Assembly: GCA_017503325.1 (NCBI GenBank)
Contig: JAFVTI010000006.1
Coordinates: 14,947-78,946 of the forward strand
DNA: 64,000 nucleotides
DNA from: Clostridia bacterium
GTDB lineage: Bacteria; Bacillota; Clostridia; Oscillospirales; CAG-272
Direction of reading: 5' to 3'
The position numbers were made by a program, and so were the translations under genes. This document shows, in pieces, positions 8,901-56,856 of the stretch. Within the stretch, counting starts at the first letter, position 1, and the number at the start of each line of letters is the position of its first letter. The notes beneath the pieces were generated by a model that did no database searches, had not been told where the DNA came from, and saw nothing but the letters and a program-made list of their open reading frames with translations.

Positions 8901-10234
8901 ATCTCGGTGCTGTGCGTATCCGTATTCGCAGCTTGATATCGGCTATGAGGATGCGCCGTAAGCAGAATATTAAAGCAGAGCCTAAGCCGACCGCATATCA
9001 CCGCACCGAATACACACAGAAGATGAAGGACGAGAACTATACCATTCTCGCGCCTCAAATGCTGCCGATTCACTTTGATATCATCGAACCTGTATTTCAT
9101 AAGTACGGATATAATCTTGAAATACTGAAAAACGATAACCGCAAGGCAATAGATACAGGGCTGAAATATGTAAATAATGACGCTTGTTTTCCGTCGATCA
9201 CCATTGTCGGTCAGTTTATGGAGGCAGTCACGTCGGGACGGTACGACACTGACAAGCTCGCTATATTTATGACGCAAACGGGCGGCTGTTGCCGTGCCTC
9301 CAATTACGTGGGACTTATCCGCCGAGCTCTTGACAAAGCGGGGTATTCGCATATTCCCGTGATCTCGCTGAGTATGGGCGGAATTGAGAAGAACGAGGGC
9401 TTTCAGATCAATTTCAATATGGTGAAAGATGCCGTATATGCGCTCCTTTACGGCGACCTTATTATGCGTTGCCTTTACAGAGTCAGACCTTACGAGCTGA
9501 CTAAAGGCTCTGCAAACGAGCTGAGAGATAAACTCATTAAGAGCTGTATTTCGTCCTTGACCGATAAGAATGACAGGACGAGCTATCAAAAAATGTGCAA
9601 CACGATCGTGCAGAGCTTTGATGCGCTTCCTATCAACGAGAATATGAAAAAGCCACGTGTCGGTATCGTTGGTGAGATACTTGTAAAATATATGCCGCTT
9701 GCCAATAATCACCTTGTAGAGCTTCTTGAAAGAGAGGGAGCAGAGGTTGTCGTTCCCGATTTTATCGATTTTGTTAATTACAGTATGTACAATGCCCGAT
9801 ACAAACGGAAATACTACGGAAGATCGAGGAAAAGTGTGGTTGCCTCCAATTCGGTTTTGAAGATCGTCAAAAAGCTTCGCAAGCCTGCCATTGACGCGCT
9901 GAAAAATAGCAAACGATTTGACGTTCCCGCGCCGATCGAAGAAATTGCCGAAATGACAAAGCCCATTCTGTCGCTCGGCAATCAGTACGGCGAGGGATGG
10001 TTCTTGACAGGTGAGATGGTAGAGCTGATCACACACGGAACGCCGAATATCGTATGTATTCAGCCCTTTGCGTGTCTGCCCAATCACGTGGTCGGCAAGG
10101 GCGTGATCAAAAAGCTCCGTGAGACCTATCCGCAGGCAAATATCGTTGCCGTAGATTACGATCCCGGAGCAAGTGAAGTAAACCAATTAAACAGAATAAA
10201 ACTCATGCTGTCCGCCGCGAAGGAGCGGATGTAA
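5996..10234 (+). CDS. Fusion of two BadF/BcrA/HgdC-type activase ATPase domains with a 2-hydroxyacyl-CoA dehydratase/benzoyl-CoA reductase-like domain; candidate plasmalogen synthase of the fused PlsA-PlsR type
   Basis: Two actin-fold ATPase starts are visible (GIDIGSTTVKLVV near aa 13 and GIDAGSTTTKMVL near aa 325). A Cys cluster RRCGGCSNNC follows, then a long dehydratase-like C-terminal part. The gene sits directly after cdsA. Confidence 0.8.
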   Translation: MGETILKEYRAGIDIGSTTVKLVVLDAEDHIIYGQYRRHMAKTQETLAALLREATETIGDCALKVKITGSGSINLGKALGIDFVQEVVAVATALKKVAPQTDVAIELGGEDAKIIYFTGGLEERMNGVCAGGTGSFIDQMAALLQTDAEGLNKAAENYKEIYPIAARCGVFAKTDIQPLINEGATTADLAASIFQAVVNQTISGLACGKPIRGCVAFLGGPLHFMPELKKAFVRTLKLTEETTIDPENSHLFAAMGAALEAEGECAVSASELVGRLSEGVKVTYEMPRLEPLFATNEEYEAFKTRHKTAVLPKGDLSTYNGNAFLGIDAGSTTTKMVLIGERGELLFSFYANNRGDPIKTAKEAFDKLKAQMHSGVRIVRSCSTGYGEALLKSAFSLDEGEVETIAHTTAASFFDKDVDCVLDIGGQDMKCIKLRTGAVDTILLNEACSSGCGSFIENFANSLGFTAEDFAKEALFAEAPVDLGTRCTVFMNSNVKQAQKEGASVSDISAGLAYSVIKNALYKVIKLADAKDLGKHIVVQGGTFHNEAVLRAFEKIAGVEATCPDIAGLMGAFGAALIAKQNYHGKPTEMLSLDEIAELTYTATSRRCGGCSNNCMLTVNRFSNGQSHITGNRCEKGIGNIGGRRKAPNMMEYKRKRIFDYEPLDEKDAPRGVIGIPRVLNMYENYPFWATFFRELGFRVVLSPWSSRKIYELGMESIPSESECYPAKLSHGHVEWLIAQGIKTIFHPCIYYEHKEITTAQNQYNCPIVVSYAENLKNNVEAITRGDVRLVRPFMAFTSEKIAADRLVTICREEWNIPEKEVRAAVLAAWQEQQRARFDIRAEGKRLLSDMQLNGGNGIVLAGRPYHIDPEINHGIPELIASYGFTVFTEDSLPVDISPERPLRVLDQWVYHSRLYAAAEFVRSRDDLELIQLNSFGCGLDAVTTDQVNEILEGSNKLYTVLKIDEVNNLGAVRIRIRSLISAMRMRRKQNIKAEPKPTAYHRTEYTQKMKDENYTILAPQMLPIHFDIIEPVFHKYGYNLEILKNDNRKAIDTGLKYVNNDACFPSITIVGQFMEAVTSGRYDTDKLAIFMTQTGGCCRASNYVGLIRRALDKAGYSHIPVISLSMGGIEKNEGFQINFNMVKDAVYALLYGDLIMRCLYRVRPYELTKGSANELRDKLIKSCISSLTDKNDRTSYQKMCNTIVQSFDALPINENMKKPRVGIVGEILVKYMPLANNHLVELLEREGAEVVVPDFIDFVNYSMYNARYKRKYYGRSRKSVVASNSVLKIVKKLRKPAIDALKNSKRFDVPAPIEEIAEMTKPILSLGNQYGEGWFLTGEMVELITHGTPNIVCIQPFACLPNHVVGKGVIKKLRETYPQANIVAVDYDPGASEVNQLNRIKLMLSAAKERM

Positions 10235-10253
10235 AGGAAAGGAGTATAAAAAA

Positions 10254-11219
10254 TTGAGCAAAAAGGGTGTATTGATTGGAACGGGTATTGCTGTCGCAGG
10301 TGTAGCTGCAGGTGTGGCTGTTTCACATATGATAACAAAGGGCTTGGTAAAATTCGCAATTGAGCGAGATATGCCAAAATCGCTTGAAAAGCAAAGACCC
10401 AAGCTCACACAAGGCGATCGCGTGAAGGCTTTTCAGGAGTGCATCACCGAAACGGGAAAAGCCCTTCTTGAGAAGGATATCGAGAAAGTTGAAATCAGAA
10501 GCCGTGACGGACTCCGCCTTGTCGGCCATTGGTATCCCTGTGAGAACGCAAAGCGCGTGATCATAGCAATGCACGGATGGCGTTCAGCGTGGTATATGGA
10601 CTTCGGAATGATTGCTGACTTTTGGCATAACGAGGGGTGCAGCATTCTATTTGCCGAGCAAAGAGCGCAGAATAACAGCGAGGGCGAGTATATGACCTTT
10701 GGATATATGGAGCGTTACGATTGCCTTGATTGGATATATTGGGTGAACGAGCGCACCGAAAGCCAATATTCCATCTATCTTGCGGGGGTATCTATGGGGG
10801 CATCTACCGTTTTAATGACAGCGGGATTTCCCCTGCCGTCAAACGTCCGGGGTGTCATGGCTGATTGCGGCTTTACCTGCGCTTACGACGAATGGCGCCA
10901 CGTAGTCAAAAACAACATGAAGCTTTCCTACGGCTTGCGCGGATATATGATAGACCGTAGCTGCCAAAAAAAACTACACGTAAGCTCCAAGGATATTACA
11001 ACGCTTACAGCAATGAAATATTCGCAAATTCCGATCCTGTTCATCCACGGCACGGATGATAAATTTGTTCCCGTAAGAATGACATATGAAAATTATCATG
11101 CCTGCACTTCGCCCAAAGAGCTTTTGATCATCCCCGGCGCTATCCACGGGGAGAGCTACTTTATTGAGAAAGAAAAGTACGAAGCGGTGACAAGATCGTT
11201 TTGGAGTAAATACGAATAA
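10254..11219 (+). CDS. Membrane-anchored alpha/beta hydrolase (serine hydrolase)
   Basis: TTG start with a GGAAAGGAG RBS and an N-terminal TM helix. Nucleophile elbow GVSMGAS, plus IHGTDDKFVP and GAIHGES for the Asp/His positions. Confidence 0.8.
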   Translation: MSKKGVLIGTGIAVAGVAAGVAVSHMITKGLVKFAIERDMPKSLEKQRPKLTQGDRVKAFQECITETGKALLEKDIEKVEIRSRDGLRLVGHWYPCENAKRVIIAMHGWRSAWYMDFGMIADFWHNEGCSILFAEQRAQNNSEGEYMTFGYMERYDCLDWIYWVNERTESQYSIYLAGVSMGASTVLMTAGFPLPSNVRGVMADCGFTCAYDEWRHVVKNNMKLSYGLRGYMIDRSCQKKLHVSSKDITTLTAMKYSQIPILFIHGTDDKFVPVRMTYENYHACTSPKELLIIPGAIHGESYFIEKEKYEAVTRSFWSKYE

Positions 11220-12027: not shown

Positions 12028-12103
12028 TGGTCTGAGTGACAAGACTTGAACTTGCGGCCTCTACCACCCCAAGGTAGCGCGCTACCAGCTGCGCCACACC
12101 CAG
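12028..12103 (-). tRNA. tRNA-Pro (anticodon GGG)
   Basis: Hand-folded 76-nt cloverleaf: acceptor CTGGGTG/CACTCAG with the bacterial tRNA-Pro C1:G72 pair, D arm GCGC-AGCTGGTA-GCGC and anticodon arm CTACC-TTGGGGT-GGTAG. G37 is present, the T arm is GCAAG-TTCAAGT-CTTGT and CCA is encoded. Confidence 0.9.
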
Positions 12104-50152: not shown

Positions 50153-50189
50153 AACAGGGGCTGCTTTGGCAGCTCCTGTTTGCTTTTTT
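50153..50189 (+). terminator. Rho-independent terminator
   Basis: Stem aacaggggctgc / gcagctcctgtt followed by tgcTTTTTT. Confidence 0.7.
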
Positions 50190-50256
50190 CTAACAGAACG
50201 GACGCGAAAAAAAGCCTTGCCTCAAGGGAAGAGCGAAGGGAATGGATTCGCGCAAA

Positions 50257-50577
50257 AAGCCTTCCCCGCTGGGGTAAGGTGGCGCCGTAGGCGACGGATG
50301 AGGTCCCCATAAAACCGCTCAAAACAATCTTGGGCGTCTTTCACATAGGAAGAGAGAACACTTGCTCCCTTCAGGGAGTAGGAGCAAAGCGACGGAGCGT
50401 GTTTTGCTATATTGATCGAATATCTGATAGCTTAAAGCTTTTTGCCCTCTGTATCTCCCAAAGGGAGAAAGGGATCAGTTGCCCTATGGGGTAGATCGCC
50501 TAAAGATGGTTCAGAGCGGTTTTATGGGGACCTCATCCGTCGCCTACGGCGCCACCTTACCCCAGCGGGGAAGGCTT
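50257..50577. repeat. Perfect 64-bp GC-rich inverted repeat with a 193-nt structured spacer
   Basis: 50257-50320 (aagccttccccgctggggtaaggtggcgccgtaggcgacggatgaggtccccataaaaccgctc) is the exact reverse complement of 50514-50577. The arms extend imperfectly to about 50249 and 50590. Confidence 0.95.
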
Positions 50578-50665
50578 GTTTCGCGTTTCCGCATCACCGT
50601 ATCGGCTCCGCTATAACCCTCTGTTACAAATGCAAAAAATGTGTCAAAGATTTTATGAAAATCTC

Positions 50666-50694
50666 TTGATTTTTACGTAAATTTATGATAATAT
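50666..50694 (+). promoter_or_regulatory. Extended -10 sigma-A-type promoter of the SipW-associated operon
   Basis: TTGATT, 17 nt (ending in TGa), TAATAT. It leaves a ~140-nt purine-rich leader before ATG 50838. Confidence 0.5.
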
Positions 50695-50837
50695 TACCGT
50701 AGGACTTTGTTTCACTTTATGAAAAAAGAATGGGTAGCAGGGAAGCGCTCGTTCGTATTTTCATATCAATAGGTCAAAAGCCTTGATATATAAAGGAAAA
50801 ACAAAAGCTGAAAATACAAGAAAGGAAAAACAAAAAA

Positions 50838-51380
50838 ATGAAAAACAGAAAAACAATTATTGTAGGCTTTATTCTTGTAGCTTGCATGATCATGGGTGTT
50901 GGTTATGCGGTACTTACTGACTCTCTCGAGGTTGGCGGTACTGCAGAGATTAAGAAGGATGCAGCAGAGGATGCATTCGACTTTGATGTTCGTTTTACTA
51001 ATGCTACAGCGGTAACTCCGGGAAATACAACAAGCATTAATGCAGATAACGACGATAAGGTTTCCTTCACCGCATCTTCACTCGCGGAAAAGGATGACGT
51101 TGCTACGTTTGAGTACGAGGTAACAAACAGTAGTGATCTTATTGCTAAGATTGCGTCTACAGATATTGATGCTAATGTAACCACTTTAACAGCAGATGAT
51201 GGTACTGTTACTACTCCCTCAGAGAGTATTTTTGAAGTTACCTACTCGTGGAATACAGAAACTATTGCCGCAAATGGCGGTACGGCAATACTTACAGTTC
51301 ATGTAAAACTTAAGGAAACGCCCACTGTTTACGCAAAGGGAACATTTACTCTTACCATTAGTGTAATTTCCGAGGAGTAA
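50838..51380 (+). CDS. Small secreted acidic Thr/Ala-rich protein with a SipW-class-like signal peptide; candidate major fibre or matrix subunit
   Basis: The signal and mature N-terminus MKNRKTIIVGFILVACMIMGVGYA|VLTDSLEVGGTAEI share a motif with the 54157 ORF. There are no Cys residues and the sequence looks beta-rich. The block SSLAEKDDVATFEYEVTNSSDLIAKI recalls TasA/camelysin-type sandwiches. Confidence 0.7.
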   Translation: MKNRKTIIVGFILVACMIMGVGYAVLTDSLEVGGTAEIKKDAAEDAFDFDVRFTNATAVTPGNTTSINADNDDKVSFTASSLAEKDDVATFEYEVTNSSDLIAKIASTDIDANVTTLTADDGTVTTPSESIFEVTYSWNTETIAANGGTAILTVHVKLKETPTVYAKGTFTLTISVISEE

Positions 51381-51452: not shown

Positions 51453-52574
51453 ATGTCAGACAAAAGAATATTGCACGCAATATCTGCGTCGACCCTTGCT
51501 GTCCTCCTTCTTGCATTTTTCCTTCCGGGTGAATACAGCGGCAAGGTAACCGCCGCTGTATTGCTCCTGCCCGTTGCGTTGCTTTGTCGGTTTGCCATCA
51601 AAAAGAGAAGCATTCCGTCCATCAACAAAGGGCAGGTTCTTATGATCATGTCGATCATTAGCGTGGTGCTTCTGACACTTTTATATATGACCGGTCTTGA
51701 GTTCGGATTTGTCAGAAATCCGTACGCGCTGCATGCCAGATTTTTGCTTGGGTATGCGCTTCCCACCTCGGTCATTATCGTAGCGTCCGAGTATGCCCGT
51801 TACGTCATGCGCGCACAGAACGACAAGGCCGCAGACGTTTTGTCCTATCTGTTCTGCGTGGTTGCCGAGATTCTGATCTTCGGTAACTTTGCATACATGA
51901 ACACCTTCAACAGATTCATGGATTTCGTGGGAGTCACGCTGTTTCCCGCAATCATTGCAAATCTGCTTTACCATTATCTTTCCAAGCGTTACGGGGCAAC
52001 GCCCAATATCGTGTACCGCGCCGTGCTTGCGCTGTATACGTACTTTATCCCCGTTGTGTCGGGAATCCCCGATTCGCTCATGGCTTTCGCCAAGCTTTTT
52101 ATCCCAATTCTCATTTATCTTTTCATTGACGCGCTGTTTGAAAAGAAGAGAAAATACGCACTTGTCAAAACCAGCAAGCTGTCCGTGGTCATCACGGCGG
52201 TCGCTGTCGTGATCATGGCAGGTGTGGTCATGCTGATCTCCAACCAGTTCCGCTTTGGCGTGTTGGTGATCGCAACCCCCAGTATGACGGGCGAGCTCAA
52301 CAAGGGTGACGCCGCCATATTTGAAAAATACGAGGACCAGCCCCTTGTGGAGGGTCAAGTCATTGTGTTCGAAAAAGACGGCTCTATGATCATTCACAGA
52401 GTCGTGGACATACAAACGGTCAACGGTACGACCAGATATTTCACCAAGGGTGATGCCAACGAGGATCTCGATGCGGGCTTCATCTATCGCTCCGACATCG
52501 TGGGCGTGGTGAACTACAAGGTGCCGTATATTGGCTATCCGACCATCTGGTTGCGTAGCTTATTCCAACGATAA
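51453..52574 (+). CDS. sipW: Signal peptidase I of the SipW/Sec11 (S26B) type, fused to an N-terminal ~265-aa 8-TM domain
   Basis: AAGGAGG RBS. The C-terminal 105 aa carry TPSMTGELNKGD (Ser), MIIHRVV (His) and FTKGDANEDLD, the ER/archaeal-type Ser-His pattern. About eight additional hydrophobic helices precede it. Confidence 0.8.
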   Translation: MSDKRILHAISASTLAVLLLAFFLPGEYSGKVTAAVLLLPVALLCRFAIKKRSIPSINKGQVLMIMSIISVVLLTLLYMTGLEFGFVRNPYALHARFLLGYALPTSVIIVASEYARYVMRAQNDKAADVLSYLFCVVAEILIFGNFAYMNTFNRFMDFVGVTLFPAIIANLLYHYLSKRYGATPNIVYRAVLALYTYFIPVVSGIPDSLMAFAKLFIPILIYLFIDALFEKKRKYALVKTSKLSVVITAVAVVIMAGVVMLISNQFRFGVLVIATPSMTGELNKGDAAIFEKYEDQPLVEGQVIVFEKDGSMIIHRVVDIQTVNGTTRYFTKGDANEDLDAGFIYRSDIVGVVNYKVPYIGYPTIWLRSLFQR

Positions 52575-52585
52575 GGAGGTAAACC

Positions 52586-54130
52586 ATGTCCGAAGCCGAA
52601 AGATTACGACGACAGGAATATAAGCGTAACAGAAAAAAATGGATCATCATTCAATCTGTTGCATTGGCCGTGGTTTTGGCAATTGCGCTTGCTTCTTTTG
52701 TCATTTATGACAGAATGAACCGCACCTACTATATTGAATACACCGAGAACGGCGGCGTGGATTACAAGGTATTCTTGAAGGACAACCCCTTCTACGATGA
52801 TGCCTACCTTGAAAAGGATCAATCCTACGTTGCAAGCCTGATCAAGGAGATCACGGCCGAGTTTACTTACGATCTGACTATGGACGCCGAAAGCGTAGGC
52901 TTTGACTATACCTACAAGATCGACGCACAGGTTATCGTTGCCAACAAGGACACGGGAGATCCTATCTACGATCCCACCTTTGAGCTGATTCCCGAAACCA
53001 AAGAAAGTGCAGAGAACGGCAACCTTTTGGGCATTGACAAGAGCGTTGTGATCGATTATAACAAATATAACAAGCTTGCAACCGATTTTATCAAGGCGTA
53101 CGACCTCAAGAGCACCACGAGCACCCTGGTGGTCACCATGACCGTGGACGTGCTCAGCCGCTGTGAGGAATTTGAGGATAACAATCAGAATTCCTATTTC
53201 GTGTCTCTGAACATCCCGCTGACAGAGGAGAACTTCAGTATCTTTTCCACCTCCAGCACGCCCGAGGCACAGAACAAGGTGCTGGCTTGCAGCGGTGCAG
53301 TCAACCAGAACGTATTTATGATCGTGGGCATCGTGCTTTTGTCGATCGACGTGCTGCTGGCAGCGCTTCTGACCGCGTTTATCTACATTACCAGAAACGA
53401 AGACGTTACCTATGCAAACAAGGTTCGCAAGCTGGTGTCCTCCTATCGCTCCTTCATTCAGCAAATGGAGGGCGAGTTTGACACCGAGGGATATCAGATC
53501 GTGCCCATCAAGACCTTTGGTGAAATGCTGGGTATCCGAGACACCATTCAGTCTCCGATTCTGATGTTTGAAAACCTTGACCAGACCATGACCGAATTCG
53601 TCATCCCCACCAACACCAAGATCCTTTACAGCTTTGTGATCAAGGTGGACAACTACGACGAGATCTACAATACACCCGAGCCCGAGCCTGAGCCCGAGCC
53701 CGAACCCGAGGAAGAGGTCGTCATTCATGACGAGAGCATTCCCGAGGAGGAAATCGCAGAGGCGATGGAAACTCCGGACGTGGTGCTTGAGGAGATCAAC
53801 TACGTAGAGGACAACGACGAGGAGCTGGAAGAGGGCGTTGAGGTCATCGGCGTTGTATGGCCCGAAAAGGCAAACAGAAATAAGGTTTACCGCTACGACC
53901 CGGACGGCGAAAAGCTGGAGAAGGGCGATATGGTTCTCGTTCCCACAAGGGACGTGCACAAGAATAAAGAGGTGATCAGAAAAGCCGCCGTTGCACACGA
54001 GAATCACAGAATTGACCCCGCATTGCATCCCCATGCGATCAAAAAGATCATAGGCGTTATCAGACGCCATGCTGACGCAGTTCTTGCGCCTGCGCCCAAG
54101 GATGCTGAGCAAAACAACAACCAAGAATAA
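52586..54130 (+). CDS. Bitopic membrane protein with a DUF5305-like layout, a (Pro-Glu)n linker and a small C-terminal beta-rich domain
   Basis: Basic N-terminus and TM1 (aa 19-41), a ~200-aa outside domain, TM2 (~aa 243-268) and a cytoplasmic domain. PEPEPEPEPEPEEE follows, then VIGVVWPEK.NRNKVYRYDPDGEKLEKGDMVLVPT. The DUF5305 assignment is from memory. Confidence 0.6.
   Translation: MSEAERLRRQEYKRNRKKWIIIQSVALAVVLAIALASFVIYDRMNRTYYIEYTENGGVDYKVFLKDNPFYDDAYLEKDQSYVASLIKEITAEFTYDLTMDAESVGFDYTYKIDAQVIVANKDTGDPIYDPTFELIPETKESAENGNLLGIDKSVVIDYNKYNKLATDFIKAYDLKSTTSTLVVTMTVDVLSRCEEFEDNNQNSYFVSLNIPLTEENFSIFSTSSTPEAQNKVLACSGAVNQNVFMIVGIVLLSIDVLLAALLTAFIYITRNEDVTYANKVRKLVSSYRSFIQQMEGEFDTEGYQIVPIKTFGEMLGIRDTIQSPILMFENLDQTMTEFVIPTNTKILYSFVIKVDNYDEIYNTPEPEPEPEPEPEEEVVIHDESIPEEEIAEAMETPDVVLEEINYVEDNDEELEEGVEVIGVVWPEKANRNKVYRYDPDGEKLEKGDMVLVPTRDVHKNKEVIRKAAVAHENHRIDPALHPHAIKKIIGVIRRHADAVLAPAPKDAEQNNNQE
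53675..53710 (+). repeat. In-frame hexanucleotide tandem repeat (CCNGAR)x6 encoding (Pro-Glu)6
   Basis: cccgag cccgag cctgag cccgag cccgaa cccgag, inside the 52586 ORF. Confidence 0.9.
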
Positions 54131-54156
54131 TTTCATAAAGAAGGGAGAGTGTGACT

Positions 54157-55596
54157 ATGACAAAGAGAATGCTGATTGTGCTTTGTGTCGCACTCTCCTT
54201 TATGTGTGCCTTTATCTCAGTGGGCTATGCCGCCCTGACCGATACCTTCAATATCATGGGACACGCGGAAATTGAAATTCCGTACGGCTTGTTTATTACG
54301 AGTATCGAGCCGCTTTCCGATTCAAATCTGGATGTCATGGACGTCAGCCACGTGCAGCATTCCACAACGGTGGAGTGCTCTTTGAGTAAAGTGTATTCCT
54401 ATTACGGCACCAACGGCTCGGTTACCTATGAAATTACCGTGTTCAATAACACCACGCGCGAGTATGCATTCCGAGCACTGTATTATCAGGACGGCACGTA
54501 CAACAACAATATGATTGAGAACTATAACGGAAGCAATTCCATCGGTGTTATCACGCATTTTCCGGACGGCAAAAAGGTTGCCCCCGGCAAGTCCTTGACC
54601 TTCCACGTAACCTACAACCTCGGCACGGGACTTTATCCTTACAACACCTATAAAACGCTGATCAACTATCAGTTTGGTATTAACGTTGACTCCGAAACCG
54701 AGGCCGTGGACGTCGTACACGATAAGTTCCTGGATATTCTGAATACCACCTCGACCTATGAAACGCTGGTTGACGTATTGGATAACAAGTACGACGGCTC
54801 GCAGGAATGGACCTCCAACTACGTCGGTAACGTTGGTAATGCAACCTCTGACGACGCACTCGCGGTCAACACGCTGTTCGCAGGCCAGCTGCAGCTGGTC
54901 ATTGACGGCCAAACCAAGCCCGCAACCGTACTGATCAAGCACGAAAACCTGGATAATAACCGAAACACCGGTGACGACTACGTTGCAGTCAACAAAAACA
55001 ATCAAGGCAGCCCGTTCTACGGCTACGGATGTGAAATGACGCTGTATCTGACTACGGATGATCTGGATCAGAAGAATGGCTGGGCACCGGTCTACGTTTC
55101 CGTCTTTACCTGTGACCGCGATGAAAACGGCAATATCGTAGGCGACTGGTATCTGATCGGTGAGACGTATAAGGGCAGAGCCAATATCGTCGGATATAAC
55201 GGTGAAGCCGGTGGAACAGGCTCGTTCGTTACGGACAACTGGGTTGCGGATGCGGCAACCTACCAGGTCACCGACCATTATTCCTACTACGTAGCGGATG
55301 GCACCACCATCAAAACGCTGACGCAGACGGTAGATCCGGGCTTGACCAACGAGTTCCAAAGCCTGCTCAATCGCGCCAAGGCTATGATCGACGATACCAC
55401 CTATGCAGGCACGGGTATCACCGTGGTCGAGGAGGCCTACGAAAGAGCAGCGCCGTATTTCACCGTGGATGCAAACGGTAACCCCGTAGCAGACCCAACC
55501 ATCACAAGAGCGCAGCTTTGTCCCATCGTCAAGTTCCTGGAAACCAAGCTGAACGAAGCCCAGGACAAGATTGACCAAATCGTAGGTCAGCAATAA
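54157..55596 (+). CDS. Large secreted protein with the same SipW-class-like signal and N-terminal motif; candidate minor subunit or adhesin
   Basis: MTKRMLIVLCVALSFMCAFISVGYA|ALTDTFNIMGHAEI. ATG 54157 lies 7 nt after a GGGAGAG RBS; the track start is GTG 54151. The body is beta-rich with a helical C-terminal ~90 aa. Confidence 0.7.
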   Translation: MTKRMLIVLCVALSFMCAFISVGYAALTDTFNIMGHAEIEIPYGLFITSIEPLSDSNLDVMDVSHVQHSTTVECSLSKVYSYYGTNGSVTYEITVFNNTTREYAFRALYYQDGTYNNNMIENYNGSNSIGVITHFPDGKKVAPGKSLTFHVTYNLGTGLYPYNTYKTLINYQFGINVDSETEAVDVVHDKFLDILNTTSTYETLVDVLDNKYDGSQEWTSNYVGNVGNATSDDALAVNTLFAGQLQLVIDGQTKPATVLIKHENLDNNRNTGDDYVAVNKNNQGSPFYGYGCEMTLYLTTDDLDQKNGWAPVYVSVFTCDRDENGNIVGDWYLIGETYKGRANIVGYNGEAGGTGSFVTDNWVADAATYQVTDHYSYYVADGTTIKTLTQTVDPGLTNEFQSLLNRAKAMIDDTTYAGTGITVVEEAYERAAPYFTVDANGNPVADPTITRAQLCPIVKFLETKLNEAQDKIDQIVGQQ

Positions 55597-55600
55597 AATC

Positions 55601-55634
55601 AAAAGGCATTATCGCAAGGATAATGCCTTTTTTG
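55601..55634. terminator. Bidirectional terminator closing the SipW-associated operon
   Basis: Stem aaggcattatc / gataatgcctt followed by TTTTT. The convergent gene ends at 55649. Confidence 0.7.
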
Positions 55635-55648
55635 TATGGAATTGTATT

Positions 55649-56716
55649 TTACCACTCCAGCTTGATTTCCTCGTTCTGCTCGGAGGAATCGTAGATGGCC
55701 TGCATCATACGCGCGGTGATGATGACCTGGTCGATGTGAGAGGGAAGCTTTTCACCCGTCTTGATGCAGCGGATGAAGGAATCGATCTCGTTCTGGAACA
55801 TGTGCACGCTTTCATATTCGGGCACTTCCTTGGTCAGCTTGCCGTCCTTGGTGCCGAATACCGTAAAGTTGCCGCCGTAGTTGAGGCGCACGCCTGCCTT
55901 GTCGCCCAGGAAGTCGATGTAAGCCTCGCCAATGCCGATGTTCTGCGCCCATGCGCCGTTGAAGGTGATGGTCGGACCCTCGGTGCGGATAAAGCCGGTT
56001 ACGCTGTCGTCCACGTCGTAGGTGCCGTTCAGATCCTTGGTGTCCTCGGCCCACATGCCCTCGTAAACGTAGTTCGGCATATCAACGCCCAGCTTGGAGA
56101 ATGCCTTGCCCGAAACGGTCAGAGGCTTGGGGTCGCCCGTGCAGTACATGACGATATCAAGATAGTGCACGCCCCAGTCGATCAGAGAACCACCGCCTGC
56201 GATCTCCTTGGTGGTAAATGCGCCGCCAAGTCCGGGGATGGAACGCCATGCGCGGAAGGAAACGTATACGTGATAAACCTCGCCAAGCTCGCCTGCCTCA
56301 ATCAGCTTTCTGATCTCATTGACGGCCGTGTTGAAGCGGTTGACCACACCGATGTTGAGCACCTTGCCCGATTTGTGCTGCGCTTCTTGCATCAGCTTTG
56401 CTTCTGCATAAGTGCGAGCTGCGGGCTTTTCGCAAAGCACGTGCTTGCCATGCTCCAAAAAGTCAATGGCAATGGTGGTGTGCATGCGGTTGGGTGTGCA
56501 GACCGAAACCGCCTCGATCTCCGGGTCGTCCAGAATTTCACGGTAGTCTACGATGGCAGTGCCGCAACCGTACTTTTCAACGGCAGCCTGCGCCTTTTCG
56601 GGAATGATGTCGCAGAAATACTTGATCTCCACCTCGGGGTTGTTCATGTATGCGGGAATATGCGCGCTGTTTGCGATCGTACCGCAGCCGATCACGGCAA
56701 CCTTGATTTTGCTCAT
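55649..56716 (-). CDS. Gfo/Idh/MocA family NAD(P)-dependent oxidoreductase
   Basis: Rossmann N-terminus KVAVIGCGTIANSAH and EKP motif LCEKPAA. ATG 56716 follows an AGGAGG RBS. Confidence 0.85.
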   Translation of the reverse strand: MSKIKVAVIGCGTIANSAHIPAYMNNPEVEIKYFCDIIPEKAQAAVEKYGCGTAIVDYREILDDPEIEAVSVCTPNRMHTTIAIDFLEHGKHVLCEKPAARTYAEAKLMQEAQHKSGKVLNIGVVNRFNTAVNEIRKLIEAGELGEVYHVYVSFRAWRSIPGLGGAFTTKEIAGGGSLIDWGVHYLDIVMYCTGDPKPLTVSGKAFSKLGVDMPNYVYEGMWAEDTKDLNGTYDVDDSVTGFIRTEGPTITFNGAWAQNIGIGEAYIDFLGDKAGVRLNYGGNFTVFGTKDGKLTKEVPEYESVHMFQNEIDSFIRCIKTGEKLPSHIDQVIITARMMQAIYDSSEQNEEIKLEW

Positions 56717-56856
56717 GGGGCAGTCCTCCTTGATAAAACTATTACCATGATTATACTCCTTTTTGATCAATTCGTCAAGAATAATTGCAGATGTTCACAC
56801 CGTGTTAAAAAATATTTGCTACACTATCTGTATATCACCCAATCCGGAGGAAAGCA

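Follow-up and report, generated by a model that had tools for sequence, protein, structure and literature searches.

A four-gene cassette on the forward strand of a 64,000-nucleotide stretch from a Clostridia bacterium (GenBank assembly GCA_017503325.1, contig JAFVTI010000006.1; the whole stretch is called the window here, with positions counted from its first letter) encodes two secreted proteins, the products of genes 1 and 4, that share the N-terminal motif VGYAxLTDxxxxxGxAEI. It is likely that these proteins belong to a donor-strand-complemented fibre, with gene 1 as the major subunit and gene 4 as an initiator or tip comparable to TapA or TafC. The best reading of the combined analyses is that the cassette is a Sec-dependent, chaperone-free fibre system of gut Clostridia, which would work like TasA/TapA/SipW and which carries a gene set like that of the Tafi and AbpX loci. 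Systems of this kind are already known (the TasA, Tafi and AbpX fibres), and judged by the family models this one lies outside the TasA/camelysin, DUF1102 and TIGR04088 families. The original prediction gained computational support in each of its testable elements. The components of the cassette are:

50838..51380, + strand: gene 1, open reading frame (ORF) of 180 amino acids (aa), short-class subunit, proposed major fibre subunit
50838..50909, + strand: predicted signal peptide of gene 1, residues 1-24 (MKNRK...VGYA), predicted cleavage at 50909/50910
50910..50951, + strand: proposed donor strand of gene 1, mature residues +1 to +14 (VLTDSLEVGGTAEI), from period-2 conservation, the strand in the AlphaFold2 (AF2) model and the alignment with W2-I12 of AbpX
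51453..52574, + strand: gene 2, 373 aa, proposed dedicated signal peptidase I (SPase I), from TIGR02228, Peptidase_S26 and invariant residues
52586..54130, + strand: gene 3, 514 aa, DUF5305 protein, proposed TafG-like accessory of the peptidase, from PF17231 and hydropathy
54157..55596, + strand: gene 4, 479 aa, long-class subunit, proposed initiator or tip, from homologs, the AF2 model and hhalign
54157..54231, + strand: predicted signal peptide of gene 4, residues 1-25, predicted cleavage at 54231/54232
54232..54273, + strand: proposed donor strand of gene 4, mature residues +1 to +14 (ALTDTFNIMGHAEI), from conservation and the co-variation of genes 1 and 4

The four genes are co-directional, with gaps of 72, 11 and 26 nt between genes 1 and 2, 2 and 3, and 3 and 4, and ribosome-binding sites precede both motif-bearing ORFs. 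For gene 4 the most likely start is the ATG at 54157 rather than the GTG at 54151, because its homologs begin MTKR.

The shared motif and its conservation

Translation of both sites bears out the original prediction that genes 1 and 4 share the motif: positions 50898-50951 translate to VGYAVLTDSLEVGGTAEI (residues 21-38 of gene 1) and positions 54220-54273 to VGYAALTDTFNIMGHAEI (residues 22-39 of gene 4). A six-frame regular-expression scan and a profile search of the window ORFs found the motif at only these two sites in the 64 kb. Nine of the 11 identical motif residues use different codons, with 30 of 54 nucleotides identical between the two genes. The similarity thus does not stem from a recent duplication or gene conversion, and it is selection on the peptide, not recent DNA exchange, that maintains it.

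The two proteins had been described as otherwise unrelated, and this holds at the level of BLASTP, where residues 1-39 of gene 1 align with residues 3-42 of gene 4 (16/40 identical, E 1e-5) and nothing else aligns. It does not hold at the level of profiles, where the first domain of gene 4 is a probable remote homolog of gene 1. Comparison of the two family alignments with hhalign matched the whole of gene 1 to gene 4 residues 4-178 at 98.7% probability, and after removal of the first 42-44 residues the match persisted at 69% (E 4e-5) over 88 columns that take in a common V-T-x-x-I-x-V-x-N motif and the last strands. This suggests that the first beta-sandwich of gene 4 (approximately residues 45-178) is a remote homolog of the entire gene 1 domain, while the remaining 300 residues have no counterpart in gene 1. 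Because hhalign relates its first domain to gene 1, gene 4 is best described as a donor strand, a pilin-like domain and a head.

Conservation around the motif was counted relative to G-[YF]-[AS] in 116 short-class (gene 1-like) and 165 long-class (gene 4-like) sequences; both sets were picked with the profile, so that absolute conservation is inflated, but the period-2 alternation is not an artefact of this selection. In both classes Gly occupies -3 in 100% of sequences, Tyr -2 in ~90% and Ala -1 in 88-100%. Beyond the site, hydrophobic residues occur in at least 90% of sequences at each of +2 (L/V/I), +6 (L/F/M), +8 (I/V), +12 (A/V) and +14 (V/I), Asp holds +4 in 83-87% and Gly +10 in 96-97%, and the odd positions from +5 to +13 are polar and variable. 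The pattern of conservation is identical in the short and long classes. At +2 the residue is Leu in 66-73%, Val in 17% and Ile in 6-11%, with Phe or Tyr in no more than 2%.

Read this way, the motif combines a putative SPase I site (small residues at -3 and -1) with an amphipathic beta-strand of 14 residues after it. The original prediction had proposed G-Y-A as a plausible SPase I site, which the near invariance of -3 to -1 in both classes supports; the position of the cut itself we infer. It had further proposed that conservation runs past the cleavage site, and it does so for 14 residues, with strict period-2 hydrophobicity and in register with the donor strand of AbpX.

The signal peptides themselves begin MKNRK in gene 1 and MTKR in gene 4, and neither N-terminus contains a twin-arginine motif. 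In gene 1 an n-region with K2, R4 and K5 is followed by the hydrophobic core, and G(-3) and A(-1) are invariant. As a separate observation, this signal peptide (MKNRKTIIVAFLLVA..., 50838-50897) is conserved far beyond usual Sec signal peptides, in the short class as well: M1, K2, N3, R4, F11, L13 and A15 each occur in at least 90% of 90 short-class sequences that are otherwise ~24% identical per column.

Distribution of the motif and the cassette

A profile of 42 positions, built from the N-termini of both families, matched 1788 of 1.84 billion cluster representatives at E<=1e-3, with every match at protein residues 1-40. The mature parts of the best 150 matches cluster into two classes and a few singletons. 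The short class (152-223 aa) is gene 1-like and begins MKNRK; the long class (151-644 aa) is gene 4-like and carries P-x-G-L-F-I-T after the motif. The gene 1 family appears small by word search, yet it forms the larger class among the N-terminal profile matches, and gene 4 has 571 homologs.

Scanning the GTDB species genomes for the gene 4 family yielded 53 loci, all in metagenome-assembled genomes of uncultured Clostridia, Eubacteriales, Oscillospiraceae or Christensenellaceae, and the host is a ruminant wherever the record title names one. The whole cassette is present at 44 of the 53 loci in the order 1-2-3-4 or 4-1-2-3 (one divergent). The expectation that motif matches cluster beside SipW-like genes was borne out: the 44 loci and the window each hold exactly two motif ORFs, both inside the peptidase cassette, and of 26 metagenome contigs retrieved with the gene 1 N-terminus, all 20 that extend far enough have the peptidase immediately downstream. 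Median identity to the window proteins across loci is 37% for gene 1, 50.5% for gene 2, 47.5% for gene 3 and 53% for gene 4.

The signal peptidase and its proposed DUF5305 partner

Gene 2 scores 67.8 bits on TIGR02228 (cut-off 51.85) and 23.3 on Peptidase_S26 (cut-off 22.9), and reaches 49.9 bits on NF046067, the SipW equivalog model of Bacillus, below its cut-off of 190. Ser277 (xSM), His315 (HRV) and Asp334/Asp340 (GDANEDxD) are invariant in 24 homologs, consistent with the Ser/His chemistry of SipW. By these matches gene 2 is a predicted SPase I of the archaeal/ER (SipW) type, SipW-like in type and not an ortholog of SipW, and the original description of the adjacent peptidase as SipW-like stands on the TIGR02228 match above cut-off and the invariant catalytic residues. 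Homologs of gene 2 make up at least 1341 clusters, and the 120 of them listed are all 368-380 aa long.

Ahead of the catalytic domain is fused an N-terminal region (residues 1-262) with approximately 7-9 hydrophobic segments by hydropathy, which matches no Pfam family. This polytopic domain (51453-52240) has its own set of invariant polar or charged residues (K50, K51, R52, S56, E113, R116, Q122, C135, R179, N185 and R189). Possibly the unusually conserved signal-peptide core of the substrates docks there.

Gene 3 scores 38.5 bits on PF17231 (DUF5305; cut-off 29) and has two transmembrane segments by hydropathy (~20-38 and 243-261). A role for DUF5305 proteins as accessories of the peptidase has been proposed for related systems (PMC11821415, PMC12337348, 10.64898/2026.01.04.697558). 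In the window protein a Pro-Glu repeat linker (PEPEPEPEPEPE, 53675-53710) joins the DUF5305/transmembrane part to a C-terminal domain of ~115 aa, and the length of gene 3 homologs ranges from 364 to 1150 aa between loci. An antisense ORF of 510 aa over gene 3 (52604-54136) is a mechanical ORF and unsupported.

Predicted structures of the two proposed subunits

The AF2 model of gene 1 (predicted local distance difference test score, pLDDT, 81.9) has a signal helix at residues 4-25 and then a strand at residues 30-40 that is docked in cis on a beta-sandwich. Its best matches in the PDB by Foldseek are to self-complemented FimA (6erj, E 3e-4, template-modelling (TM) score 0.34-0.38), followed by more entries of FimA and by FimG and CfaB, and the chaperone-usher matches include 5nkt, 5iqm and 4y2l. 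The gene 4 model (pLDDT 88.2) has a helix at residues 3-27, after which residues 28-44 form an undocked coil (pLDDT ~65), then a confident sandwich (45-177), a mixed domain (180-380) and a helical C-terminus. Foldseek returned no significant match to the PDB for gene 4, only generic beta-sandwich appendage domains. Both mature proteins are acidic, with an isoelectric point (pI) of 4.05 and 17.3% Asp+Glu for gene 1 and a pI of 4.33 and 12.8% for gene 4.

Pfam and NCBIfam searches with all four proteins and 90 short-class members gave only Ig-like noise for the subunits, in which weak matches to the Ig-like families fn3_5, CARDB and DUF11 recur, and no sequence relatives of the subunits with a solved structure were found.

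The layout of gene 4 is a signal peptide, the proposed donor strand, the pilin-like beta-sandwich (45-177) and a conserved head (180-478). Across 30 sequences that are 55-88% identical, the head (54694-55596, residues 180-479) keeps over 100 columns invariant, among them the stretches EWTSNY.GNV, IKHENLD, GYGCEMT and FTCDRD and two invariant Cys, and it has no Pfam match and no significant PDB fold match. Because this conservation exceeds that expected of an adhesin, an enzymatic or fixed-ligand function is possible for the head. The same N-terminal tag and sandwich carry different heads in other long-class proteins. One of these (locus L073, 10869-12362) takes the place of gene 4 in its cassette, shows 24% identity to gene 4 that is confined to the first 200 residues, and gives weak Listeria-Bacteroides-repeat and BspA-LRR matches; another (P0225) has four Listeria-Bacteroides repeats (E 3e-60). 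A third long-class protein (P0270) likewise joins the same tag and sandwich to a different head. Modularity of this kind fits a tip or adhesin role.

Co-variation of the strands and replacement of the proposed major subunit

Strands of genes 1 and 4 from the same genome resemble each other more than expected (mean BLOSUM62 score 33.4, compared to 26.6 +/- 0.86 for shuffled pairs, p<2e-4, 43 distinct loci). This co-variation from +1 to +14 holds at even and odd positions alike, and the rare replacements of Asp+4 (T/S, N, R, K, E) occur together in both partners of one genome. Within gene 1, co-variation with +4 is strongest at position 73, where a conserved D-K-A-x-F motif has its D. Across 153 short-class sequences the +4/position 73 pairs were acid/acid in 122, acid/non-acid in 11, non-acid/acid in 7 and non-acid/non-acid in 13 (odds ratio 20.6, p 5e-8, a statistic that ignores phylogeny). 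The coupling fits a putative acidic pair at the interface between strand and groove, as in AbpX. Co-variation of this sort does not separate docking in cis from docking in trans, nor a constraint from the groove from one imposed by the peptidase.

Comparison with a near-identical relative (L001, GCA_965122925.1) showed an abrupt difference within the cassette. Genes 2, 3 and 4 are 97%, 99% and 96% identical between the two genomes and gene 1 is 38% identical, with 76% identity at its N-terminus and 28% in the rest. DNA identity is 92-100% as far as 50888, collapses from 50889, inside the motif-coding segment, stays at ~40-50% through 51447 and returns to 100% from 51448 at the start of gene 2 (the counterpart in L001 lies at ~10050-10640). 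Because sharp breaks in DNA identity flank this block, the mature part of gene 1 has been replaced by recombination, with the region coding for the signal peptide as the left arm. Such replacement is typical for surface-exposed major pilins and flagellins.

A second block that is unrelated between the two genomes spans ~390 nt (50197-50588) of the non-coding leader upstream of gene 1, and over the 250 nt adjoining gene 1 (50589-50837) the identity per 50-nt window is 72-96%. In the ~650-nt leader Rfam gave no match to a riboswitch or any other known RNA, and a scan for sigma-70-like promoters did not exceed the shuffled expectation and gave nothing convincing upstream of gene 1.

Comparison with known fibre systems

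AbpX-like biomatrix fibrils are represented by AbpX of Pyrodictium abyssi and by bacterial homologs in Bacillota and Chloroflexota. The motif itself resembles AbpX of P. abyssi, whose precursor reads ...TAIGLTYA/QWSETLSLSATISTGS, the slash marking the cleavage site (10.64898/2026.01.04.697558, supplement). In the AbpX fibril as solved by electron cryo-microscopy (cryoEM), W2, L6, L8, A10 and I12 of the donor strand (TYA/QWSETLSLSATIS) lie buried in the next subunit's groove and Ca2+ is bound by E4 at the subunit interface; AbpX-like subunits are acidic (pI ~4, ~15% Asp/Glu), and AbpX-like loci, those of Bacillota among them, encode an SPase I with many transmembrane segments (10 reported), DUF5305, minor subunits and tip proteins (10.64898/2026.01.04.697558). 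The short-class hidden Markov model scored AbpX at 20.9 bits (E 2e-8 as a single planned comparison), in an alignment that puts the cleavage site and the strand in register. GVGYA/ALTDTLTITGTAS, the consensus here, matches TYA/QWSETLSLSATIS position by position, with Asp in place of E4 at the acidic +4. The acidity of the subunits is alike (pI 4.05 and 17% for gene 1), as is a locus that combines an SPase I of many transmembrane segments (about 8-9 in gene 2 when counted for this comparison by hydropathy), DUF5305, a major subunit and a larger tip or minor subunit. Unlike the AbpX loci, the cassette contains no SLH or LPXTG anchor, sortase, or c-di-GMP or histidine-kinase genes.

The TasA/TapA/SipW system of B. 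subtilis shares with the cassette an operon-encoded dedicated Ser/His SPase I, a major subunit (TasA) that polymerises through its N-terminal strand and an accessory protein with an N-terminus like that of the major subunit. The mature N-terminus of TasA (AFND) has a hydrophobic +2 and Asp at +4, as in genes 1 and 4. That system has no DUF5305 partner, SipW is a small enzyme with two transmembrane segments whereas gene 2 has a large polytopic domain, and the head of gene 4 is unrelated to TapA. The N-terminus of TapA resembles the donor strand of TasA and has been modelled to complement TasA as the first donor strand (PMC9674648). With a corresponding model for TafC and TafA (PMC11821415), this gives published precedent for the proposal that an accessory protein shares the strand of the major subunit.

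In the archaeal Tafi system, TafD is a dedicated SPase I shown genetically to process TafA, TafG is a DUF5305 protein, TafA, TafC and TafE are pilins, TafA has been compared to FimA, and the two-domain TafC has been modelled to donate the first strand at the fibre end; in AlphaFold monomers TafA is closed and TafC open (PMC11821415). The DUF1102 clusters of Thermococcales and Archaeoglobales also pair a dedicated SPase I with DUF5305 (PMC12337348). The cassette resembles both in its SPase I, its DUF5305 protein, a FimA-like pilin of ~150-200 aa and a two-domain tip or initiator, and the docked strand of gene 1 and free strand of gene 4 match the closed and open pair of TafA and TafC. It differs in that Tafi is archaeal and, in haloarchaea, Tat-dependent; in that TafD has 4 transmembrane segments and a C-terminal Ig-like domain whereas gene 2 has a large N-terminal polytopic domain; in that the cassette lacks the regulator TafB, the adaptor TafE and the membrane anchor TafF; and in that genes 1 and 4 have no detectable sequence similarity to DUF1102.

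Chaperone-usher type 1 pili provide the best structural matches of the gene 1 model (FimA, FimG, CfaB), and their subunits likewise have an N-terminal extension in which hydrophobic residues alternate and a Gly is conserved, at P4. In contrast to those pili, there is no chaperone, usher or outer membrane here, the TM-scores are 0.3-0.4 and there is no sequence relationship. Further, FimH accepts a strand, whereas the proposed initiator would donate one.

Proposed mechanism and alternative explanations

From the motif, its linkage to the peptidase, the co-variation, the identity of the peptidase and the monomer folds, all computed here, we infer cleavage at GYA, polymerisation, the place of gene 4 at a fibre end and the binding of a cation. 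In a Sec signal peptide, the V-G-Y-A segment would be the c-region and the site at which gene 2 would cut, probably working with the DUF5305 membrane protein encoded by gene 3. The next 14 residues (x-L-T-D-x-L-x-I-x-G-x-A-x-I) would form the N-terminus of both mature proteins as an amphipathic beta-strand. In gene 1, the acidic and fast-evolving putative major subunit, the strand would fill the subunit's own groove before assembly (the closed form) and would be donated to the next subunit in the fibre, by donor-strand complementation. The strand of gene 4 would be free (the open form) and insert into the groove of a gene 1 subunit, by which gene 4 would initiate or cap the fibre and present its head, in the manner of TapA with TasA or of TafC with Tafi. 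Asp+4 probably pairs with an acidic acceptor site in the region of Asp73, possibly through a cation as in AbpX. In these respects the motif would work like the SipW-cognate signal, as a distinct and shorter variant of it.

Several observations weigh against a donor-strand fibre of this kind. Neither gene 1 nor gene 4 matches TIGR04088, the model of the SipW-cognate signal peptide, at E<=1, and only 4 of 90 short-class members touch it (best E 0.0032); Peptidase_M73 (TasA/camelysin) and DUF1102 gave no match at E<=1 to gene 1, gene 4 or the same 90 members. In the Foldseek list of gene 1 the TasA fibre (8aur) ranks only 48th (E 0.11), and the similarity to FimA is weak by TM-score, with the signal helix in the query partly lowering the scores. 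In the monomer model of gene 1 the strand simply belongs to the sandwich and could be an ordinary first strand. The core of AbpX alone aligns at 9-10 bits in a different register (hhalign probability 0.5%), such that similarity of the cores is not demonstrable, and the aromatic 'clamp' at +2 of AbpX and TasA is replaced by Leu, Val or Ile here. Neither subunit bears an LPXTG, SLH or membrane anchor. The co-variation statistics take no account of phylogeny. Finally, two loci (L023, 9968-11461, and L029, 8310-9746) hold a gene 4 homolog with no homolog of gene 1, 2 or 3 within 8-10 kb. These two homologs sit among unrelated genes (ABC transporters, a response regulator), and the cassette is presumably located elsewhere in their genomes.

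The foremost alternative is that the motif is a recognition element for the peptidase followed by the ordinary first strand of a homologous Ig-like domain, with genes 1 and 4 encoding monomeric secreted or surface proteins and no polymer being formed. We consider this unlikely. In its favour are the docking in cis in the gene 1 model; the probable homology of the first domain of gene 4 to gene 1, by which the common strand could reflect ancestry; the co-variation of the two strands, which would also follow from co-evolution with one peptidase; and the unusually conserved core of the signal peptide, which points to recognition. It is harder to reconcile with a strand far better conserved than the other strands of the domain (76% compared to 28% between the window and L001), with a gene 4 model that keeps the strand outside the fold and with a strand in register with a donor strand shown by cryoEM (AbpX). 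The period-2 pattern reaches +14, well past the residues that the active site of SPase I is known to contact. Donor-strand fibres are the product of every characterised system that has a dedicated SPase I, whether or not DUF5305 is present.

An uncleaved N-terminal anchor, or a type IV pilin-like subunit from which the MKNRK leader is removed, would make the motif a linker to the globular domain; such an arrangement is very unlikely. The MKNRK leader and hydrophobic core are indeed conserved well above a usual Sec signal peptide, and the helix-bearing models weakly match an archaeal type IV pilin (8q30; rank 21 and E 0.017 for gene 1, rank 29 for gene 4), but there is no Gly or Ala at -1 after the leader and no Glu+5, G-Y-A with its small -3 and -1 residues lies directly after the hydrophobic core, and the invariably linked enzyme is an SPase I. 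The 20-kb loci hold no further homologs of genes 1-4, in a comparison that did not include a search for prepilin peptidases, assembly ATPases or platform proteins. The type IV pilin was rejected on the lack of class III cleavage features and on the type I of the linked peptidase. A lipoprotein signal, in which L-V-A-C(16) of gene 1, an apparent lipobox by eye, would lipid-anchor the proteins, has next to no probability and was rejected since the Cys is not conserved in the family alignments (many members read VAVM, VAAL or VAAM), the F-M-C of gene 4 is no lipobox and the linked peptidase is of type I, not type II.

The donor-strand fibre could also be extended to a more speculative scheme, which is quite unlikely, where cleavage and polymerisation are mechanically coupled in an enzyme-gated pilus assembly machine of Gram-positive gut bacteria, free of chaperone and usher. 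Within the membrane, the unusually conserved core of the signal peptide (MKNRKTIIVAFLLVA...) would dock to the polytopic domain of gene 2 with its invariant polar residues E113, R116, Q122, R179, N185 and R189, and gene 2 and the DUF5305 protein would form an usher-like platform in the cytoplasmic membrane that holds the closed subunit. GYA would be cut only once a free donor strand, that of gene 4 and then that of the previous gene 1 subunit, displaces the cis strand, and a cation site between Asp(+4) and Asp73 would lock the strand in place. Together, swappable alleles of the major subunit and adhesin heads that can be exchanged would serve as a system of variation.

Boundaries of the cassette

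Two hairpins flank the cassette:

50153..50180, + strand: terminator-like hairpin that ends the upstream aminotransferase gene, left boundary of the cassette transcription unit
55601..55631, no strand assigned: palindromic hairpin between gene 4 and the convergent gene at 55649-56770

The second hairpin is a probable terminator and would mark the right boundary of the cassette. Elsewhere in the window, a single tRNA gene (12031-12103, - strand) is the sole Rfam match at the gathering threshold.

Implications

Donor-strand fibres that assemble without chaperone or usher (TasA, archaeal bundling pili, threads, Tafi and AbpX) have been recognised only since 2022 and characterised almost entirely in Bacillus and extremophile archaea. 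The cassette described here places a compact four-gene version of such a predicted system in a large uncultured group of ruminant-gut Clostridia, with ~1,800 clusters tagged by the motif. Both subunit families are unannotated, in that neither has a Pfam or NCBIfam family, and the motif provides a sequence handle for the subunits, a predicted cleavage site and a strand to mutate. The system, which would comprise one major subunit plus one initiator or tip, looks tractable. The replacement of the major subunit between near-identical strains, combined with the exchangeable heads of the long class, suggests selection on a surface structure with a part in adhesion or in the recognition of phage or host in the gut.

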